Origin: Clostridia bacterium
GTDB lineage: Bacteria; Bacillota; Clostridia; JAAYHZ01
Assembly: GCA_050950825.1 (NCBI GenBank)
Contig: JBMNIH010000002.1
Location: 224,001 to 288,000, forward strand
Direction: 5' to 3'
Length of the DNA: 64,000 nucleotides
Numbering within the stretch: position 1 is the stretch's first letter; every line of letters begins with the position of its first letter. Below are positions 6,946 to 50,061 of the stretch, piece after piece. Below the pieces are notes generated by a model that was given only the letters and a program-made list of their open reading frames with translations, was not told the DNA's origin and made no database searches. The translations under genes were made by a program, and so were the position numbers.

Positions 6946-8283
6946 GTTTTTCACCTCCGAAGTAAGCAGCACCTCTTATGATGGCGTATTTATCAGAGGA
7001 AGTATCGTCAGTTTTGTTGGGTTTGGACATTTCTGACGACTTTTTATCTTGGCCTGCTTCTAAAATCAGGCGAATGTTTTTGTAGCGAGGGTTGGGTATC
7101 TTGGTAAGTGCTATTCGACAGGCATCTTCTAACCTTTCAGGTGTATATTTGTCGGACAGTTTCAGAAGCGATAGGCAGCCTTTGTATGCCTGTTCTTCTA
7201 TTCGATAGGATTCAAACATTCTCCGGACGACCTGCTTTGTGGCTTCGCCGATATCGGAAGCCCATTTCAGAAAACGTGTGGAATCCCATTCGCTGTACAA
7301 TTGGTGGTTCGCCGGCATATGATCAACCACGGTGGAATACTGTCCCCTGCGGCCATACAAGCGTTTATGACTACAAATACGGGTTCCTTTGTAATAGACT
7401 TCGATGATACTCTTGGTATACCTAACGTCTACCTTCTTTTTAACATATTCATAAGGTACTGAATAGTATTGTTGATCTATGGCAATATGGTAATTCAGCT
7501 GTACCGTCGCTGTTTTCCATTGTGCCAATTCGTACGGGTATTTAGGCAGCGATTGCATGAAGGGAAGTTCTTCTTCCATGAAAACCGAATAACGGCTGCC
7601 ATCCTTCTTCTGGAATGGATTTTGGTTGAATTTATCCAATTCCTTGAGAATTGCTTTATTCAATTCTTCAATACTGAAGAACTGACGATTTCGTAACCTT
7701 GCTATGATATGGGATGTCAGATTACCTACAGTAGTTTCTACGGCTGCTTTATCACGCGGGGCCATAATGCGAGCCGGTAGAATGGCTGTTTGGTAGTGAT
7801 CTGCTAACTCTTGATATGCGCGATTAACAATAGGATCTTCATGTTTCTTGTTTTCGAGGATCCCAACCTTAAGGTTATCGGGTATTAACATCCTGGTTGT
7901 TCCTCCGAAGTACTCATACATGCTAATATGAGCATTTATCCAGTCTTCCTCCTTCATGGTAAGACATGCTTTTGCATAACAGTACATGCTAAACGGAAGA
8001 GTCCCGACAAACAAATAAACCTTGCAGCTTTTTCCTGTCAATTTGTCATATAGCGGCAAGGTGGCTCCATCCCAATCTACCATTAATTTATCTCCGGGTT
8101 TATGCCGGATATGCATTGTAAGGCTGTTTTTGTCTACATAGTCCTGGTAGAGTTTACAGTACTGAGAATACATGTAGGGCGGTTTACCCTCGTTACGACA
8201 AGCGTCAACATATTCTTGCCACAGAAGCTTTAATGTTACTCCGCTTTTCAGTAGTTCTTTGTGGATGTAATCAAAGTCAGGGG
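6935..8283 (-). pseudogene. istA: IS21 transposase IstA, N-terminally truncated
   Basis: DDE motifs MVDWDG, IPDNLK and DKAAVE; begins at PDFDYIHKEL with no N-terminal HTH. Confidence 0.85.
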
Positions 8284-9718
8284 TGAACTTAAATTGCATC
8301 AACTGTGTAAAGAGATATCTGAAAAATATAAATTTGAGTTTAATTTGGATTCCATTCTCTCCCGATTGGTTTACGGTAGAATACTATTCCCTTTATCGAA
8401 GCTTGGAACTTTTGAAGAATCAAAAAAGTTTATCGAACAACCGGATTTTAAGTTACATCAAATATACAGAGCGCTTGAATACCTCGCCAAAGAAATCGAT
8501 TTCATACAAAGCTTTTTATACAAAAATAGTCTTAAGATTTCGAAAAGAAATACCGGGATACTTTACTATGATTGCACGAACTTCTATTTCGAGATTGAAG
8601 AGGAAGACGGTATAAAGCAATACGGAGCGAGTAAGGACCACAAACCCAATCCAATCGTGCAGATGGGGCTATTCATGGACGGAGACGGTATTCCTCTTGC
8701 TTTTAGTCTTTTTAACGGGAACATGAATGAACAGCTCACGTTAAAGCCGTTGGAAAAGAAAATCCTGTCCGACTTCGAACTATCTAAGTTCGTTGTCTGT
8801 ACCGATGCGGGTCTTTCTTCAGAAGCCAATCGCAGGTTTAATGACAGAGAAGAACGTGCCTTTATCACCACGCAGTCCGTCAAAAAATTGAAAGCACATC
8901 TTAAAAAGTGGGCCCTTGATCCAACCGGTTGGAAACTTTCCGGGAGCGATAAGATTCATGATATTTCAAAACTTGATGAGATGATAGAAAAAGCCGACGC
9001 GAAGGGCAAAGAAAGAATACGCTCCATGGTTTTCTACAAAGAACGCTGGATTAAAGAAGATGATTTCGAGCAAAAATTGATTGTAACGTACTGTGTAAGA
9101 TACAGGGATTATCAGCGTAGTATACGTAATTCCCAAATAGAACGTGCGGAAAAGATAATGGAACAAAATCCTAGCGTGATAAAGAAATCCAGACAAAATG
9201 ACTGCAAACGATTTATCAAAAAGACAAACGTAACAACAAATGGTGAAATTGCAGAAAAAGAATTATACAGCATAGACACTGCTCTGATAGAGAAAGAAGC
9301 ATCTTATGACGGTTTTTATGGGGTATGCACGAATTTGGATGATGACGTATCACAAATTATCAAGATCAATCAGCGAAGATGGGAAATTGAAGAATGCTTC
9401 AGAATCATGAAAAGTGAGTTTGAAGCGAGACCCGTATATTTAACTCGAAAAGAACGAATAGAAGCGCATTTCATTACTTGCTTCATAGCTTTAGTTATTT
9501 ACAGACTTCTTGAAAAAAGGCTTAATGAAAAATTCACTTGCGGTGAGATTATCGGCGAATTAAGAGAAATGAACTTTAAGAGGATTGAAGGAGAGGGATA
9601 TGAGCCGCTTTATACAAGAACCGATTTCACCGATGCCTTACATGAAGCTTTTGGTTTTCATACGGATTATGAAATTGTCACTCTGAAGCAAATGAAAAAA
9701 ATTTTTAAAATCACAAAA

Positions 9719-10305
9719 TGTAGATGATTCACTGTCTCAAGTACAAAATCAACTTCCAAAGATGGACTCACTACCCATGCTAGGAGTTCTTTTGTACAGG
9801 CATCTATAATAGTAGACATATAGCATCTAGGTGCTCTACCGTTAATAATATATGTGATATCTGTAAGCAGAACTTTCCGTGGTCCATGTTCCTCAAACTC
9901 GCGATTCAGGAGATTTGGAGCGACATAGGAAGTACCTATCGCTTTTGCTATACGTCTGTATGGATTTGCTTTGCGAATTGGGCATTTTAATCCATACTTC
10001 TTCATAAGACGCCGAATCTTTTTTATGTTCATGACAACCGGTGGAGTCTGATGCAGTAATCTCATATAAATCCCACGTGCACCCTTATCATATCCTCTGT
10101 GTTTATATGCTTCTATGATGAGAAGAAAATCCTGTTGATCCTGTTCTTCTTTCTGTTTTCTAACTTCTTCTGTAGTGAGATAGTGATAATAGCCGGATCT
10201 AGAAACACCAGCGATTTCGCACAGGACAGAAACATTTAAAAGATTCCCATGCAGTGCTACTGTTTCTTGTATGATTTTATACTTGGCATTTGCAGGAATG
10301 ATCAT
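9719..10305 (-). pseudogene. IS3-family OrfB (integrase core), truncated
   Basis: GVSRSGYY, KKIRRLMKKYGL, NLLNREF, LLTDITY and STIIDA present; HSDQG and the catalytic Glu are absent. Confidence 0.85.
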
Positions 10306-14224: not shown

Positions 14225-16000
14225 GATAGTGTCAACTTACTGTAGGGAAAAAATGAATAGATGACATCCTGAATTTTTGTTAGAGCAACACTACTATGGG
14301 AATGCTGCTAATAGCAAGAATCCCTCATATAATCTGCCGGATAGAGCAGACTCTTCACGTGTTCGTGGTTGTTGTCTACCCAATTATATCACATCAACAT
14401 CACCTTTTGTAAGAAGTCGGGTTTTCCCTACAATCTTATCCACACAAACCTCTTAACCATTTCAATTCATTGTATAAACCGGTTTTATGCCCTTTCGCAA
14501 GAACCGTTAGTTTACTGTTCCATACATTCTCATAACCGCTTGATAATCTCCTTAATTCTTTTATCAGTATTTCTTGTTCTTCTCGTTTTTTGACCGCTGC
14601 TTTTCTTCGCTTTTGTGCCATAACCAAGTCATATACCCTTCCGCCGTTCTTTGTATAGATCAATAACTTCGACATCTTTTCTACACCGATTTTAGACCAT
14701 CCTCTGGGGCGTGTACTCAAACGATCGGAATATACATGACTTATATGACCTTCCGCACTACAGCCGACAATTTCAGCCCCCTTGTCTTTTTTTATTTTTA
14801 TCCCGTCCCAATTATTTAATATATATCGCTTTGCACCTTTTATGGTTTCCAGTTTGCTATCATTGCTTGTCAATTCAATTATTTTTTCAAATGTCTCCTT
14901 CACTTTGTTTTTATCGGCATGGTTTATCGCTTCCTCCAGTTCTTGCCGTATCGTTCTGTCATCCAAATGAGCCGTTGCTTGTTTAATGTATTTTTTTAGA
15001 TGGAAGTTATCCAACACAAACTTACTCTTTGGCAGCCAATTCAGACCATTCTTAATCCATGAAGCTCCGTCACCCGATAAGTATATGGTTTCCAAGCATT
15101 CGACATCGTACTGTTCGTCTATGTAGTCCGCCACTTTAATCCAAAGATCATCCGTGTTTTCACATATTTCTCCGAAATAGCGGACATTCTTTAATACATT
15201 TCTGTTTTTGCTGCTTTTTTCCGTATCAATTCCCTCATGCACATAAACAAGTTTCGGTGTGACTTTCTTTTTTGTGCCTTTCTTTTCTTTTGATACACAC
15301 TTGGTTTGTAAAGATACATAATCCTCATCCGCCTCGACGTACAATGTTTTCAACTTCTTCTTTTTTTCCACCTTTATTTCGGGCTCGATGATCTCCAGAT
15401 TATGTATTTTCTTCATTACCGCTTGTTTGCTGATTTCATCAAGGTATGTGGCCATTTCTCCCGCTTTCCTGTAACTGCTTTCAACGGCTTCTTCTATTAC
15501 ATTAATAACGACATCTGCACTTACTCTATCATGCGGTTCTATTCCTATAATCTTATCGACCAAGTATTCTCGTTTACCTCCATTTTTCAGCTTAAAATAT
15601 GTCCTGCTATATCTAACCTCTCCGAAAATCGTTAAAATCTTGTTTTCGTCTTTTCTGATAATTTCCCAGTACTTTTTTCTCTCTTCATTGTTTCTCAATA
15701 GATCATCCATATCTTCAATTACTTCTTGTAAGATATTTCTAATAAGTTCAAACACATCTTCTTTTAAATTCAGGATCAAGTCTGCCAAGTCTCCACCGTT
15801 ACTTACAAAATCTTTAACCCTTTTTTCAATATTTTTTACCCCAAATTCGATAAAATGGTTTATACTATTGTACATAGATGACATCCTTTCTTAAGAATAT
15901 TTGTTTTAGGTTTATTAAATATATCTTAACAGGATGTCATCTTCTTTTCAATTATAGCTGGTATTTTATTCCTCAATCCCTACAGTAACTTTACTCTATG
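14225..16000 (-). mobile_element. ISLre2-family IS, copy 1 (1776 bp)
   Basis: IRs GATAGTGTCAACTTACTGTAGGGA / CATAGAGTAAAGTTACTGTAGGGA; 8-bp TSD ATAAGCTT (14217-14224, 16001-16008). Confidence 0.92.
14436..15875 (-). CDS. ISLre2-family (UPF0236) DDE transposase
   Basis: YVEADED, LSGDGASWI, LDNFHL and GCSAEGHISH motifs; likely start MYNSINHF after AAAGGA. Confidence 0.9.
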   Translation of the reverse strand: MYNSINHFIEFGVKNIEKRVKDFVSNGGDLADLILNLKEDVFELIRNILQEVIEDMDDLLRNNEERKKYWEIIRKDENKILTIFGEVRYSRTYFKLKNGGKREYLVDKIIGIEPHDRVSADVVINVIEEAVESSYRKAGEMATYLDEISKQAVMKKIHNLEIIEPEIKVEKKKKLKTLYVEADEDYVSLQTKCVSKEKKGTKKKVTPKLVYVHEGIDTEKSSKNRNVLKNVRYFGEICENTDDLWIKVADYIDEQYDVECLETIYLSGDGASWIKNGLNWLPKSKFVLDNFHLKKYIKQATAHLDDRTIRQELEEAINHADKNKVKETFEKIIELTSNDSKLETIKGAKRYILNNWDGIKIKKDKGAEIVGCSAEGHISHVYSDRLSTRPRGWSKIGVEKMSKLLIYTKNGGRVYDLVMAQKRRKAAVKKREEQEILIKELRRLSSGYENVWNSKLTVLAKGHKTGLYNELKWLRGLCG

Positions 16001-18199: not shown

Positions 18200-18284
18200 T
18201 GGTGGAGGAAGGTGGATTCGAACCACCGAAGGCACTGCCAACAGATTTACAGTCTGCCCCCTTTGGCCGCTCGGGAATTCCTCC
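18200..18284 (-). tRNA. tRNA-Tyr(GTA)
   Basis: GGAGGAATTCCCGAGCGGCCAAAGGGGGCAGACTGTAAATCTG...GTTCGAATCC...ACCA; long variable arm. Confidence 0.97.
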
Positions 18285-18287
18285 GTA

Positions 18288-18363
18288 TGGAGCTGGTGGA
18301 CGGATTCGAACCCCCGACCTGCTGATTACAAATCAGCTGCTCTACCTGCTGAGCTACACCAGC
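18288..18363 (-). tRNA. tRNA-Thr(TGT)
   Basis: GCTGGTGTAGCTCAG...CTGATTTGTAATCAG...TTCGAATCC..CCA. Confidence 0.97.
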
Positions 18364-18378
18364 ACTTTTTTAAAAAAA

Positions 18379-18455
18379 TGGCGACCCGGAAGGGACTCGA
18401 ACCCTCGACCTCCAGCGTGACAGGCTGGCATTCTAACCGACTGAACTACCGGGCC
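18379..18455 (-). tRNA. tRNA-Asp(GTC)
   Basis: GGCCCGGTAGTTCAG...CCTGTCACGC...GTTCGAGTCCC..CCA. Confidence 0.97.
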
Positions 18456-18459
18456 GTGT

Positions 18460-18534
18460 TGGTGACCCATAGGGGATTCGAACCCCTGTTACCGCCGTGA
18501 AAGGGCGATGTCTTAACCACTTGACCAATGGGCC
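18460..18534 (-). tRNA. tRNA-Glu(TTC)
   Basis: GGCCCATTGGTCAAG...CCCTTTCACGG...GTTCGAATCCCC..CCA. Confidence 0.97.
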
Positions 18535-18567
18535 ATTTTTCGTCGTTCGGAACACGACGCATTGTTT

Positions 18568-18596
18568 ATTTTAACTGCCTCCATCTTTATTGTCAA
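18568..18596 (-). promoter_or_regulatory. Sigma-A promoter TTGACA-17-TAAAAT for tRNA-Glu-Asp-Thr-Tyr
   Basis: Near-consensus hexamers with a 17-bp spacer. Confidence 0.8.
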
Positions 18597-18641
18597 GTGC
18601 TTTTTCATCGATCCGTTCGATTTTTGTTTTGGAGAGCAGTT

Positions 18642-18717
18642 TGGTGAGCCATCGGGGGTTCGAACCCCGGACCCCATGATTAAAAGTCATGTGCTCTACC
18701 TGCTGAGCTAATGGCTC
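18642..18717 (-). tRNA. tRNA-Lys(TTT)
   Basis: GAGCCATTAGCTCAG...GACTTTTAATC...GTTCGAACCCC..CCA. Confidence 0.97.
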
Positions 18718-33240: not shown

Positions 33241-33460
33241 CAGAGCATTTTAGTAAGAACTACCTTAACTACTCTTATTGACCTTTTCACAAGTGTGTAC
33301 CGCTGTACACGTTTACGGTTTATAGTAACCAACTTATAAAATTCGAGCGTATGCTCAATCAATAATGCAGCTATCGCTGCAGCGGCAGTCGACCCGGCTG
33401 TCCGTTAGCCTTTTACCCTTCGGGCGGTCATTCTTACTACAATGCATTTATGTCTGCATC
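33241..33460 (-). ncRNA. Large structured cis-regulatory RNA (probable ldcC motif, riboswitch candidate)
   Basis: Nested stems read by eye (see findings); lies between the promoter and a terminator, upstream of polyamine genes. Confidence 0.75.
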
Positions 33461-37955: not shown

Positions 37956-39731
37956 GATAGTGTCAACTTACTGTAGGGAAAAAATGAATAGATGACATCC
38001 TGAATTTTTGTTAGAGCAACACTACTATGGGAATGCTGCTAATAGCAAGAATCCCTCATATAATCTGCCGGATGGAGCAGACTCTTCACGTATTCGTGGT
38101 TGTTGTCTACCCAATTATATCACATCAACATCACCTTTTGTAAGAAGTCGGGTTTTCCCTACAATCTTATCCACACAAGCCTCTTAACCATTTCAATTCA
38201 TTGTATAAACCGGTTTTATGCCCTTTCGCAAGAACCGTTAGTTTACTGTTCCATACATTCTCATAACCGCTTGATAATCTCCTTAATTCTTTTATCAGTA
38301 TTTCTTGTTCTTCTCGTTTTTTGACCGCTGCTTTTCTTCGCTTTTGTGCCATAACCAAGTCATATACCCTTCCGCCGTTCTTTGTATAGATCAATAACTT
38401 CGACATCTTTTCTACACCGATTTTAGACCATCCTCCGGGGCGTGTACTCAAACGATCGGAATATACATGACTTATATGACCTTCCGCACTACAGCCGACA
38501 ATTTCAGCCCCCTTGTCTTTTTTTATTTTTATCCCGTCCCAATTATTTAATATATATCGCTTTGCACCTTTTATGGTTTCCAGTTTGCTATCATTGCTTG
38601 TCAATTCAATTATTTTTTCAAATGTCTCCTTCACTTTGTTTTTATCGGCATGGTTTATCGCTTCCTCCAGTTCTTGCCGTATCGTTCTGTCATCCAAATG
38701 AGCCGTTGCTTGTTTAATGTATTTTTTTAGATGGAAGTTATCCAACACAAACTTACTCTTTGGCAGCCAATTCAGACCATTCTTAATCCATGAAGCTCCG
38801 TCACCCGATAAGTATATGGTTTCCAAGCATTCGACATCGTACTGTTCGTCTATGTAGTCCGCCACTTTAATCCAAAGATCATCCGTGTTTTCACATATTT
38901 CTCCGAAATAGCGGACATTCTTTAATACATTTCTGTTTTTGCTGCTTTTTTCCGTATCAATTCCCTCATGCACATAAACAAGTTTCGGTGTGACTTTCTT
39001 TTTTGTGCCTTTCTTTTCTTTTGATACACACTTGGTTTGTAAAGATACATAATCCTCATCCGCCTCGACGTACAATGTTTTCAACTTCTTCTTTTTTTCC
39101 ACCTTTATTTCGGGCTCGATGATCTCCGGATTATGTATTTTCTTCATTACCGCTTGTTTGCTGATTTCATCAAGGTATGTGGCCATTTCTCCCGCTTTCC
39201 TGTAACTGCTTTCAACGGCTTCTTCTATTACATTAATAACGACATCTGCACTTACTCTATCATGCGGTTCTATTCCTATAATCTTATCGACCAAGTATTC
39301 TCGTTTACCTCCATTTTTCAGCTTAAAATATGTCCTGCTATATCTAACCTCTCCGAAAATCGTTAAAATCTTGTTTTCGTCTTTTCTGATAATTTCCCGG
39401 TACTTTTTTCTCTCTTCATTGTTTCTCAATAGATCATCCATATCTTCAATTACTTCTTGTAAGATATTTCTAATAAGTTCAAACACATCTTCTTTTAAAT
39501 TCAGGATCAAGTCTGCCAAGTCTCCACCGTTACTTACAAAATCTTTAACCCTTTTTTCAATATTTTTTACCCCAAATTCGATAAAATGGTTTATACTATT
39601 GTACATAGATGACATCCTTTCTTAAGAATATTTGTTTTAGGTTTATTAAATATATCTTAACAGGATGTCATCTTCTTTTCAATTATAGCTGGTATTTTAT
39701 TCCTCAATCCCTACAGTAACTTTACTCTATG
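37956..39731 (-). mobile_element. ISLre2-family IS, copy 2 (1776 bp)
   Basis: Near-identical to copy 1; 9-bp TSD ATAATGACA (37947-37955, 39732-39740). Confidence 0.92.
38167..39606 (-). CDS. ISLre2-family transposase
   Basis: Three amino-acid differences from copy 1. Confidence 0.9.
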   Translation of the reverse strand: MYNSINHFIEFGVKNIEKRVKDFVSNGGDLADLILNLKEDVFELIRNILQEVIEDMDDLLRNNEERKKYREIIRKDENKILTIFGEVRYSRTYFKLKNGGKREYLVDKIIGIEPHDRVSADVVINVIEEAVESSYRKAGEMATYLDEISKQAVMKKIHNPEIIEPEIKVEKKKKLKTLYVEADEDYVSLQTKCVSKEKKGTKKKVTPKLVYVHEGIDTEKSSKNRNVLKNVRYFGEICENTDDLWIKVADYIDEQYDVECLETIYLSGDGASWIKNGLNWLPKSKFVLDNFHLKKYIKQATAHLDDRTIRQELEEAINHADKNKVKETFEKIIELTSNDSKLETIKGAKRYILNNWDGIKIKKDKGAEIVGCSAEGHISHVYSDRLSTRPGGWSKIGVEKMSKLLIYTKNGGRVYDLVMAQKRRKAAVKKREEQEILIKELRRLSSGYENVWNSKLTVLAKGHKTGLYNELKWLRGLCG

Positions 39732-39764
39732 ATAATGACATTATTGCTTTTAACCGAATTTAGG

Positions 39765-46988: not shown

Positions 46989-47994
46989 TCATTTGCTATT
47001 TCCTTTTATACATTTACTTTTGAAGGAGCAATCACTGCAATCTTCGCATGTATAAACCGTTTTCTCGCTCAAAAATCCGTTTTTGCTTCTTTTCTTTATT
47101 ATATCGCTAACGACAAGTTTTCTCTTGTTATGACAGACGTAATAATCTCCTTCTGCATGGTATTCCATATTTTCCATAAGACCAATGTCATTTTTATATT
47201 TCTTGGTTTTGGATTGTTCGTAATTTAACGGTTTAATATACGCCGATTGGCCGTTTTTATCCAAGTAAATATAGTTTTCTTCGCTTTCGTATCCTGCGTC
47301 CGCGACAACTTTTTTGTATTTGAATTTTAAATGGGATCTCATTTCATTCAAAAAAGGTATTAGAGTCGGTGCATCCGTTGTGCATTGATTCACCGTTACC
47401 CATGTTATGTACTCGGAGTCAACGCCATGCTGAATGTTATATGCCGCTTTCAGCTGACCGTTGCCCATAGCGTCCTCTTTCATTCTCATAAACGTCGCAT
47501 CGTGATCCGTTTTTGAAAAACTGTTGCGGTCTCCGCATACATGTATGTTTTTCGTATATTCCTTCAGCTTATCCAAATAATTCTCCAAAGTCTCAATGGA
47601 TCGTTGGAAAGGTGTTTTTCTCTTCCCTTTTCCATGTACGAACTCGATGTTTTCTTCCTTCTTTATGGCATACAGTCTCTTGCGTAACTTTTTAACGTGT
47701 TTCATTTCGACTTGATTATTGTATACTATTTTGATTCCGTACTTTTCCTCGCATTCCGCGAAGAAATCCGCCAATTTTGCAAGCAACTTCTCTTGATTTT
47801 TTGTGACCGCTCTTTTCCAGACAAAAGTGTATTTGTTTGCACACGCCTCTATTTTCGTGCCGTCAATAAATATGGCGTCGCCGGATAATTCTCCGATATC
47901 ATAGAGAAATTCGGACATTTCACTCAAAATTCTTTTGGCACAAGGTGTGAAATGCAAGCTTCGAAACCTGGAAAACGTTGCATGATCAGGTACC
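46989..47994 (-). pseudogene. IS1182-family transposase, central fragment
   Basis: PDHATFSRFR, FIDGTKIEACANKYTFVW, SKTDHDATFMRMK, GQLKAAYN and VADAGYESEEN motifs; C-terminus missing. Confidence 0.85.
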
Positions 47995-48113
47995 GGCAGC
48001 GTAAAGTAAGTTTCGGATAATAATCAATGGAAGAATATAACAAATAGAAAGAGGACCCCGATTGTGATATGATTAAATTTCCATACAAAAAATCACAAAG
48101 GAAGGTGTCCTCT

Positions 48114-49598
48114 ATGTATAAAAGTATACTACATTTTATTGAAAATGGGTTAGTCGAAATTGAAAAAATGATGGGTGATATTCTGGCAGGTAAAAAAGAT
48201 GCCGATGATTTGACTGCACTCGTTAATAAAGTTACGTCAACGTTAGCGGTCAGCCTTATAGTGGATTTGTACGAGAAAGCTGATAACGATATACGAGAAA
48301 GCAGCGTGAGAAAAAAGTATTGGAATGTCGAGCACAGGAACAAAAAGAAAACCATCGTAGATGTCATGGGTAAGGTTGAATTCTGCCGAACCGGATATTG
48401 TGCGAAAGGAACGGGTGAGTATGTATATCTTTTGGATCAGGTGCTCGGATTTGAACCGCACCAGAAGGTAACGCTAGGCGCAGCTGCGAGAGCCTTGGAA
48501 GAAAGTATAGACAGCAGTTACCGCAAAGGCGGAGAGAATGCAAGCATAAAAGCGGAAGAAGGCATTAGCAAACAAGCCGTGATGGATCTGGTACATGAGA
48601 TTGAGGCGGACATGCCGATGCCGGAACCGGAAGGAAAGAAGAAGATAAAAAGGCTTCATGTCATAGCCGATGAAGATCATGTGGCGGCACAGTTTTGGAA
48701 TGAAAAGGGCGATTTGAAGCGAGATGCGAGGGGCCATAAGATTAATACCCTGATGCCTAAGCTTGTTTGTGTATTCGAGGATATTATCAATGAATCGGGG
48801 GAAGCATCCAAGAATCCCAGATATAAGCTGATCGGAAAAAAATACTTTTGCGGTATTTACGAGGGTGGCAAAGGCAACGAAAAGCTTTGGATGGAGGTTG
48901 CCGAATACATAGAAAAAACATACGATACGGACTATCTTGAGAGAATATACGTAGTCGGAGACGGAGCTTCGTGGATAAAAAAAGGATGCGAATATTTGGA
49001 GAACAGCAAATATGTCCTTGATAAATACCATATGATGAAATATATAAACAGGTCAGTGGCGCATCTTTACGATAGCGCGGACGAGGTGAAAGACTGGATT
49101 TGGGGAGCCTTGAATCGTTTGGACAAAAAGGAATTGAAGAATATCTATGAGCAGATCCTGAAGGTTACGGAAAGTGAAAACAAGAAGCAAGAAGTGGAAG
49201 ATGCGTTAAGATATTTTCTAAATCATTGGCAAGGGATAAAAACCCGAGTGGAAGAAACAAGCGGCTGGACATATTGCATAGAAGGGCAAATAAGCCATGT
49301 ATTGTCGGCAAGAATGAGCAGCAGACCAATGGGATGGAGCGAATTGGGTTGCGACCGCATGGCAAGGCTCAGAGCGTACAAAAGAAACGGCGGTAAGATT
49401 CTTGACTTGCTAAAATATCAAAAACAACGAAAAAAGCAAAAGGAAAGGCGTGAAGCACAAGAAGAATTGATAAGAGATCTGAGAAGAAGACATTCAAAAT
49501 GGACGTATGCGGAAGATACCAGACGTCACATACATGGTTTGGAAAGGAGCAGTATGAAGTGGCTAAAGAATATGACCACACTGGCTTGGGACGCATAA
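48114..49598 (+). CDS. ISLre2-family (UPF0236) transposase
   Basis: ADEDHV, VGDGASWI, LDKYH, EGQISHVLSARMSSRPMGWS; start MYKSILHF after AAGGAAGG. Confidence 0.9.
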   Translation: MYKSILHFIENGLVEIEKMMGDILAGKKDADDLTALVNKVTSTLAVSLIVDLYEKADNDIRESSVRKKYWNVEHRNKKKTIVDVMGKVEFCRTGYCAKGTGEYVYLLDQVLGFEPHQKVTLGAAARALEESIDSSYRKGGENASIKAEEGISKQAVMDLVHEIEADMPMPEPEGKKKIKRLHVIADEDHVAAQFWNEKGDLKRDARGHKINTLMPKLVCVFEDIINESGEASKNPRYKLIGKKYFCGIYEGGKGNEKLWMEVAEYIEKTYDTDYLERIYVVGDGASWIKKGCEYLENSKYVLDKYHMMKYINRSVAHLYDSADEVKDWIWGALNRLDKKELKNIYEQILKVTESENKKQEVEDALRYFLNHWQGIKTRVEETSGWTYCIEGQISHVLSARMSSRPMGWSELGCDRMARLRAYKRNGGKILDLLKYQKQRKKQKERREAQEELIRDLRRRHSKWTYAEDTRRHIHGLERSSMKWLKNMTTLAWDA

Positions 49599-49641
49599 GC
49601 AGCTTGAACCGCTATGACTTTGTAACCGTGTGACGGTAGGC

Positions 49642-49805
49642 TTTATGCCGCGAAAGTCGCTTTACGATGAGTAGACGGCATGTTAGGCTTGTCTGCCTGG
49701 CATCAAACACACAAAGCCGTATCCGGCTTCACCCTGTAGGAAGATGCCGCAGAGGCCACTAAACATGCCGGCAGAGGCTCGTCGTAAAGCGAACCGTGGA
49801 ATAAA
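49642..49805 (+). ncRNA. Putative rod-like structured RNA in the ISLre2 3' region
   Basis: Nested stems with G-U pairs that are valid only on the + strand. Confidence 0.55.
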
Positions 49806-49990
49806 TGAGTACTTTACTTGTGCATTTGCTATTGTCTTCATGAATTCTTGAATAGGGGTGATGTGTAATAATCAATTAAAAAAACAAATGTGGAAAAATT
49901 GATGGAAATGATATATGATACAGACAAGATTTAATCTTATCATAAGGGTGAACTCTCTCTTTTTATTTCCGAATGTATATTGACGCTATC

Positions 49991-50061
49991 TCTATTGGAA
50001 GTTTTAGTTGATAATTTCTTCGTTTAAATGTATACTTCTTATTAAGTTTTAAGTTTTTCAT
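49991..50061 (-). pseudogene. IS1182 transposase N-terminal fragment
   Basis: MKNLKLNKKYTFKRRNYQLKLPI; YQLKLP is typical of IS1182 N-termini in Bacillota. Confidence 0.7.

Follow-up and report, generated by a model that had tools for sequence, protein, structure and literature searches.

The element, its ends and its setting

The whole stretch of DNA that was analysed, 64,000 nucleotides and referred to here as the window, carries an insertion sequence of the ISLre2 family whose 494-aa open reading frame matches NF033529 (p-MULT 3 transposase) at 257.8 bits against a cut-off of 200 and also matches PF06782. Its outer features, and the promoter beside which it lies, are as follows.

47998..49990, + strand: ISLre2-family insertion sequence, with the 3 outermost bases of its left end missing
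47998..48020, + strand: left terminal inverted repeat, a remnant (sequence, ends of the other copies, family logo)
48114..49598, + strand: transposase gene, 494 aa (PF06782, NF033529)
49965..49990, + strand: right terminal inverted repeat (sequence, ends of the other copies, family logo)
50008..50036, + strand: target promoter TTGATA-17-TATACT of the interrupted IS1182 (promoter scan, copy comparison)

The ends were set from other copies, the genome holding eight further near-full-length ones with an identity of at least 99.5%. The right end falls at 49990, as the preliminary description had it, but the left start given there (47995) needed correction, since the copy begins at 47998 and the intact left end would lie 3 bases before this. 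In the available text of the family description (Guerillot et al. 2014, PMC3942029), ISLre2 elements are characterized by a p-MULT 3 transposase, by 9-bp target duplications and by insertion roughly 16 bp upstream of a sigma-A promoter, which the right end adjoins, and circles are reported in Lactobacillus reuteri. Such 9-bp duplications flank five of the eight other full copies and one interrupted copy; the left duplication of the present element has been lost by deletion. The element is inserted in an IS1182 gene, of which 233 bp of flank are deleted in all, together with the 3 left-end bases, and a truncated IS1182 gene remains at 46989-47957 (the surrounding sequence being 47720-47997 and 49991 onward), its truncation accounting for a profile match under the cut-off. 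A strong target promoter motif begins 17 bases past the right end, in agreement with the family rule of insertion 15-17 bp upstream of a sigma-A -35. The transposase probably starts at the ATG at 48114-48116; a longer reading frame starting at 48069 was rejected, as the frame of one copy differs upstream of 48114 and relatives start at the position of 48114.

A second type of ISLre2 is present in the window at 14225-16000 and 37960-39740 (minus strand), and the transposases of these two copies are 38% identical to the product of 48114-49598. The preliminary description had regarded the two window elements as unrelated in sequence and had counted them as independent support for a common switch. 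Neither view could be upheld: in addition to the identity of their transposases, their arms share the layout AGA..CC..TG-TAnGAT, which is found family-wide, so that an independent origin was rejected. The two elements are homologous, having diverged from one ancestor, and therefore lend no independent support.

Among other copies, one (G000 C6:174592-176584, L017) has an altered left tip and is flanked by a longer direct host repeat instead of the 9-bp duplication, and in another (G000 C6:108966-115476, L013) the 3' region has been broken at two places by other elements, including an IS256 that itself carries an origin-like hairpin. Elsewhere the window carries an IS1634 transposase (8261-9727), a cluster of five tRNA genes (18203-18717) and an Rfam match to the SpF59 sRNA above the gathering score (33382-33430, minus strand). 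Within ISLre2 47998-49990, the Rfam search returned nothing at the gathering score and one chance match (E 0.23) at the right end.

A predicted sequestering hairpin and its right-end partner

Two complementary arms and a promoter-like motif precede the transposase gene, and a further segment complementary to the first arm lies just inside the right repeat.

48045..48073, + strand: predicted resident transposase promoter TAGAAA-17-TG.TATGAT (promoter scan; start estimated near 48080, in the hairpin loop)
48050..48078, + strand: anti-Shine-Dalgarno arm (the lock), overlapping the promoter spacer and -10 (folding, family pairing, shuffles)
48092..48113, + strand: RBS-side arm with the Shine-Dalgarno-like GGAAGGTG at 48100-48107 (sequence, folding)
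49929..49960, + strand: decoy, able to pair with the arm, the -10 and the first bases of the loop (duplex energy, shuffles, family pairing)

The two arms and the decoy have the sequences and positions attributed to them previously. The lock (48040-48125) folds at -19.6 kcal/mol with a z of -3.59, a value that none of 200 shuffles equalled, although over the wider segment 48012-48140 the z is only -1.43 and 18 of 200 shuffles are as good; the arm:RBS duplex, at -20.4 kcal/mol, was reached by 19 of 3000 shuffles. The stem had been described as lying over both RBS and ATG; it does cover the RBS, while the ATG at 48114-48116 follows directly after it and is met only if the stem is extended. Family-wide folding comparisons gave lock pairing better than shuffled sequences in 103 of 103 clusters (see below for their definition) and better pairing with the element's own partner in 35 of 50 swaps.

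The arm constitutes the spacer and -10 of the promoter-like motif (48045-48073), and because it lies within the resident promoter a resident transcript would lack it. A TG-extended -10 follows immediately behind the arm, some 40-60 nt ahead of the start codon, in 93 of 103 clusters, and the motif is likewise predicted in 93 of 103 to place the resident start in the loop between the arms. When the cost of opening the SD-AUG window was modelled in the intact copy L020, it was 5.2 kcal/mol for the resident transcript and 14.5 kcal/mol for read-through RNA, and the corresponding medians over 68 clusters were 5.0 and 16.3 kcal/mol. On this modelling the lock looks like the known, IS10-type protection against outside transcription, and would best be read as such. 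The IS10 mechanism is termed fold-back inhibition, and its hairpin reportedly forms only in outside transcripts, in line with the title of the 1985 report by Davis and colleagues. Sequestered transposase translation signals are described for IS10 and IS3 (PMC13181058) and for IS200 (PMC4513863) in the available parts of those papers.

The preliminary description had proposed 8+8+4+4 bp of complementarity between arm and decoy, including a G-U pair, and had itself named shuffled sequences as one comparison by which the proposal could fall. The duplex is present, in a 4+4+8+8 pattern with a single G-U pair and a single U-U mismatch, and its energy of -22.9 kcal/mol was reached by none of 3000 dinucleotide shuffles (mean -11.4) and by 12 of 20 000 random genome windows. 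No other 32-nt segment on the sense strand of the element, the RBS arm included, pairs as well with the arm as the decoy does. Treating the lone G-U pair as informative was not supported.

For the family survey, 232 loci yielded 231 with a transposase match, from which 35 with a short or broken reading frame or too little flank were dropped, leaving 196; both ends were defined by repeat motifs alone in 160 of these. Clustering by protein identity gave 103 clusters below 85% (43 with a duplication), 68 below 70% and 48 below 60%. Survey ends and arm were defined without reference to the decoy; the decoy window was picked after the sequences had been viewed, and nine other windows were therefore run as controls. 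Complementarity of the 3' end to the arm, for which a search across ISLre2 members had been suggested, was better than in shuffled sequences in 102 of 103 clusters (mean duplex energy -19.0 against -9.5), and the decoy is present in 102 of 103 clusters down to a protein identity of about 35%. The signal was limited to the window 28-72 nt from the right tip, the other windows giving -9.0 to -11.5. When arms and decoys were swapped between nearest neighbours, the own partner was better in 35 of 50 pairs, worse in 12 and tied in three (better in 26 of 33 at the 70% level); for the terminal repeats, the own partner was better in 27 of 50 and worse in 11. The three-part arrangement of arm, RBS and decoy is real, conserved and co-evolving, and arm and decoy co-evolve across the 103 ISLre2 clusters.

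Between neighbours (29 pairs) the identity of the decoy is 67-75%, compared with 70% for the loop and 92-93% for the terminal repeats, and divergence about as fast as that of the loop is unlike a fixed protein site; identity of decoy to arm is approximately 70%, below the 81-86% of the lock. Sense pairing was stronger than antisense pairing in 71 clusters and weaker in 30 of the 103 (p 3e-7, a value that is overstated because the clusters are related and the samples centred on Clostridia), and the terminal repeats, used as a control, had no excess strand bias (p 0.51). Neutral-decay simulations reached the observed bias in none of 25 runs in each of three settings, and whole-region neutral simulations in none of 12 at 103, 68 and 48 clusters. 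Outside the lock the bias is largely compositional (observed -2.45, simulated -1.6 and -1.9, with two of 12 AT-biased runs reaching it), and inside the lock it could be inherited from the arm's own tolerance of G-U pairs. An alignment-based count of G-U against A-C was not significant (257:226, p 0.17; 184:149, p 0.06), nor was it for the lock, included as a positive control. We grade this evidence as moderate. Family-wide, decoy pairing fades approximately 66-70 nt from the right tip, where a right-end transcript would start, while at the left end it continues for 14 nt beyond the first base of the -10, into loop outside the RBS arm, about as far as the resident start.

Predicted right-end promoter, circle junction and origin-like hairpin

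Between the transposase gene and the decoy lie two further features.

49642..49806, + strand: long hairpin resembling a plasmid-type single-strand origin, with RS_B at the foot of the stem and -35/-10 boxes at 49661-49689 (fold, RS_B definition, plasmid matches, covariation)
49891..49919, + strand: predicted outward promoter TGGAAA-17-TATGAT (promoter scan; start estimated near 49926, 3 bases before the decoy)

The outward promoter is one of five scan hits where 5.8 were expected by chance, and so counts for little by itself, but its position is conserved in the family. Its -10 lies 77 nt from the tip; across the family, sense -10 boxes peak 80-89 nt from the right tip (70 hits against about 15 per bin), and one occurs just upstream of the decoy in 58 of 103 elements, compared with 8-21 in shifted windows, the other 45 having no -10 box at this position. 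The predicted start coincides with the inner edge of the decoy. We also considered an antisense promoter within the decoy as a general feature and rejected it, as a TG-extended -10 is found there in only 11 of 103 clusters (the present element included), compared with 93 of 103 in the left arm.

Transcripts of a joined circle were then modelled. In L020, opening cost 14.8 kcal/mol in the transcript of the junction promoter and 5.3 kcal/mol in a junction transcript from the right-end promoter; with a shuffled decoy, with foreign decoys or with the repeat alone, the latter rose to 14.1, 13.6 and 15.2, respectively. A value of 5.2 was kept for spacers of 5-10 nt from either flank, and the start point was immaterial. 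Over 68 clusters the medians were 16.6 (junction-promoter RNA) and 9.5 (right-end junction RNA), and the right-end junction RNA was more open by over 1 kcal than its shuffled-decoy control in 62 (worse in none) and more open than with foreign decoys in 57 (worse in two). Relief of the lock was, however, at least 80% in only 22 of the 68, so that unlocking is partial in most elements, and such relief was no commoner with the right-end -10 box (8 of 35) than without it (14 of 33). Equilibrium folding leaves the order of transcription out, and this order, with the decoy made first, should favour the decoy. The other ISLre2 of the window has its right-end -10 at about 165 nt from the tip, and in the model its junction RNA opens as well, the cost falling from 20.5 to 4.6 kcal/mol.

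A second promoter may form at the junction itself. The right repeat contains TTGACG (49980-49985) and the left repeat TAAAGT (48002-48007), the -35 and -10 halves of a predicted junction promoter, a role that we infer by analogy with ISCth4, a related Mutator-type element (PMC7780238, available text). From position 9 of the right repeat, 56 of 103 clusters have TTGAC, 32 TTTAC and 15 TTAAC, and the left repeat has TAAA(A/G)T. A junction spacer of 5-6 nt would give a spacing of 17-18 bp here; the circle spacers of 6-10 bp given for the superfamily in the accessible portion of PMC3942029 would give 18-22 bp, so that the junction promoter may often not form. Its transcript is predicted to be locked, with the opening costs given above. 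No right-to-left circle joint was present in the contigs of eight runs, in which empty-site joints and many new flanks were seen, and circle-junction patterns occurred in none of 401 genomes and in no viral contig; contigs drop rare forms, and these absences are accordingly weak evidence. The run contigs cannot reveal transcript starts, strand or levels, and some DNA may be present in the RNA libraries, for which reasons they were used neither for nor against expression.

The hairpin at 49642-49806 is a separate matter. It has a DNA fold z of -6.59, differs between strands (-43.5 against -36, from folding), and is compensated at eight of 47 pairs in six sequences; matches to its ends occur in 77 Bacillus plasmids, in pFL7 on the rep strand. 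RS_B lies at the base of a long imperfect hairpin, as in the definition available from PMC6395029, PMC8860593 and PMC5703833. The loop region of the window copy contains no TAGCG and no exact CS-6 was found in the hairpin, and we therefore do not assign it to the ssoA subtype. It is optional cargo, outside the switch proposed below and independent of the decoy. In this genome, RS_B hairpins were found behind ISLre2 and IS3 transposases in sense and behind IS256 transposases in antisense orientation (49642-49806 in the window; L234, L235, L236 and L024), and their orientation may report which end of the element is cut first. For IS256, a first cut at the left end has been suggested (PMC3942029, in the text available), which fits the antisense orientation of its hairpin; ISCth4 and IS256 can use either end according to the accessible part of PMC7780238. 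A strong 3' hairpin is present in 42 of 103 ISLre2 clusters. Related long hairpins without RS_B in other ISLre2 elements start with GCGAAGCG, carry -35/-10 boxes on the 5' arm and have the same 3' arm, GCT(C/T)GTTGTCAA, and hairpins without RS_B or of further unrelated types occupy the 3' regions of L044, L047, L094, L098, L101, L105, L178, L184, L186, L197, L225 and others. Another copy of the present ISLre2 (L026, G000 C2:38908) was inserted some 15 bp ahead of the TTGACA of an origin-like hairpin carried by an IS256, an insertion suggesting that the boxes of that hairpin are recognized as a promoter in double-stranded DNA. As a predicted origin, the hairpin at 49642-49806 bears on how the second strand of the circle is primed; no single-strand origin inside an insertion sequence was found in the literature searched, which consisted of abstracts and few subscription journals.

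A proposed circle-activated switch, its alternatives and known systems

We propose that ISLre2 carries a two-state RNA translation switch activated by the circle, a reading to which we give about an even chance. The resident transcript would start in the loop, without the arm, and give basal transposase, while host read-through RNA, like any RNA starting upstream of the resident promoter, is predicted by folding to be locked, the hairpin blocking translation of the transposase. In the circle, RNA from the right end would run through decoy, right repeat, junction, left repeat, arm and RBS, and by pairing with the arm its first 35-40 bases would release the start site from the block. The decoy would be made first, pairing of the terminal repeats would set the register, and the arm would be captured before the RBS exists. 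The outcome would be a burst of transposase for the integration step, ended on insertion, when the ends part. The claim of a conserved RNA switch on circularization is sustained in part: co-evolution, the sense bias, the outward promoter motif and the modelled opening speak for it, whereas constraints at the DNA level, in position and helical phasing, would also suit protein binding. Against the switch, neither a circle nor a junction transcript came to light in the sources named above, and the junction promoter seems to be present with an RNA that is predicted to be locked because it starts upstream of the hairpin, and the model leaves this unexplained.

The main rival, which we consider unlikely, treats arm and decoy as the inner portion of long, imperfect subterminal inverted repeats with a role as DNA; transposase, perhaps together with RNA polymerase, would bind them to build the synaptic complex or to repress the resident promoter; the lock would then be ordinary read-through protection and the unlocking a by-product, since any inverted repeat would pair in junction RNA. 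Fixed positions favour such repeats, namely those of AGA and CC at the right end, with a decoy core 35-44 nt from the tip, as does the distance from left promoter to tip, which is phased at about 10.5 bp with peaks at 52-53, 62-63 and 72-73; in the shortest left class the arm would, by our estimate, lie at about the same distance from the tip as the decoy. Protein sites co-evolve too, as the terminal-repeat swaps indicate, and the G-U count was not significant. However, between close relatives the decoy changes at the rate of unconstrained sequence, the terminal repeats lack the sense-strand bias, and the outward -10 box, like the coincidence of start and decoy edge, would be left unexplained. 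The decoy also lies beyond repeats of the ISCth4 kind, which measure 31 bp with 24 nearly identical (PMC7780238, available text). The phasing indicates that something protein-bound is held in register at the left end, either the arm itself or transposase at the left repeat together with polymerase at the promoter; in the latter case, which fits a family that targets promoters, the arm need not be a site. DNA and RNA roles of arm and decoy need not be mutually exclusive.

Other rivals seem to us considerably less probable. Decoy and arm might anneal in a displaced, single-stranded top-strand circle, forming a hairpin in which the resident promoter is restored and at which RNA polymerase would prime the second strand, in the manner of single-strand origins. 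G-T wobble would give the same sense-strand bias, the decoy covers promoter spacer, -10 and the bases up to the start site, and RS_B-like hits among the 103 clusters number seven sense and one antisense, the antisense hit and one sense hit being weak two-mismatch matches. Yet pairing is near background at the -35, an outward promoter would not be needed, and the decoy is equally strong with a strong 3' hairpin (42 clusters, -18.7) and without one (61, -19.1), the present element having both; the decoy as a substitute for a single-strand origin was rejected in the absence of a trade-off. This scheme is improbable, and slightly less credible still is action in trans, by a small right-end RNA or by the message's 3' end folding onto its own 5' end, which would unlock junction-promoter transcripts. 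It would explain why the junction promoter is retained, and the decoy reaches unpaired loop that could serve as a toehold. Two-molecule folding, on the other hand, opened the lock in one of six elements (the present one) and left five closed, the sense strand of ISLre2 47998-49990 has no terminator-like site behind the decoy, and such an RNA would also unlock read-through RNA and so defeat the protection. Very improbable, finally, is a functionless decoy, a decaying ancestral long repeat or one refreshed by copying between ends: rapid divergence and an identity to the arm of about 70%, below the lock's 81-86%, would suit a remnant, but 102 of 103 clusters have kept the decoy, which changes with its own arm and has a strand bias beyond that of neutral simulations.

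Among these readings, circle-dependent unlocking accounts best for the decoy together with its promoter and has in our judgement an about even chance of being right, and the specific claim that ISLre2 senses its own circularization by RNA, through a dedicated right-end leader that displaces the lock only across joined ends, we hold a little more tentatively. Elements that copy out and paste in need transposase when the circle exists and silence under host read-through, two demands for which the junction promoter and the read-through hairpin are the known solutions. If the switch is real, the right-end RNA would be the key that resolves the conflict between junction promoter and read-through hairpin, and ISLre2 would possess, across the family, a counterpart of the junction promoter that acts on translation and whose three sites are rewritten together in each element. 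This would be a layer of control of insertion sequences for which, as for a decoy or circle-dependent unlocking as such, no description was found in the literature searched (abstracts and few subscription journals); the three-part motif is likewise absent from the available text of PMC8024623, PMC12056078 and bioRxiv 2023.06.07.543989. ISLre2 is active in industrial Firmicutes (PMC8024623 and PMC12056078, available portions), and its relatives mobilise TnGBS elements.

Comparison with known systems places these features as follows. The available text of PMC3942029 gives repeats of 18-39 bp for the ISLre2 family and mentions no hairpin, decoy or right-end promoter. Like ssoA, ssoU and ssoT as described in the accessible parts of PMC6395029, PMC8860593 and PMC5703833, the hairpin at 49642-49806 is approximately 165 nt long, has RS_B at the stem base and internal promoter boxes, and shares its ends with pFL7; unlike them, it belongs to an insertion sequence, lacks an exact CS-6 and stands apart from lock and decoy. 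As in IS10, IS3 and IS200, the predicted ISLre2 5' stem-loop covers the Shine-Dalgarno sequence, but in contrast to those elements, as far as the available text of PMC13181058 and PMC4513863 describes them, ISLre2 has a third partner at the right end that would reverse the lock. With junction-promoter (Pjunc) systems it would have in common that transposase output is tied to the circle, with a -35 in the right repeat and a -10 in the left; it differs in that its junction-promoter RNA is predicted to be locked and that the proposed sensor would act on translation, through the pairing of an RNA whose complete promoter lies within the right end. Finally, IS10 RNA-OUT and IS200 art200 are, like the proposed decoy transcript, element-encoded RNAs that pair with the transposase leader; in the available account (PMC4513863) they repress and are encoded opposite the leader, whereas the ISLre2 decoy would activate, from the sense strand and from the far end of the element.
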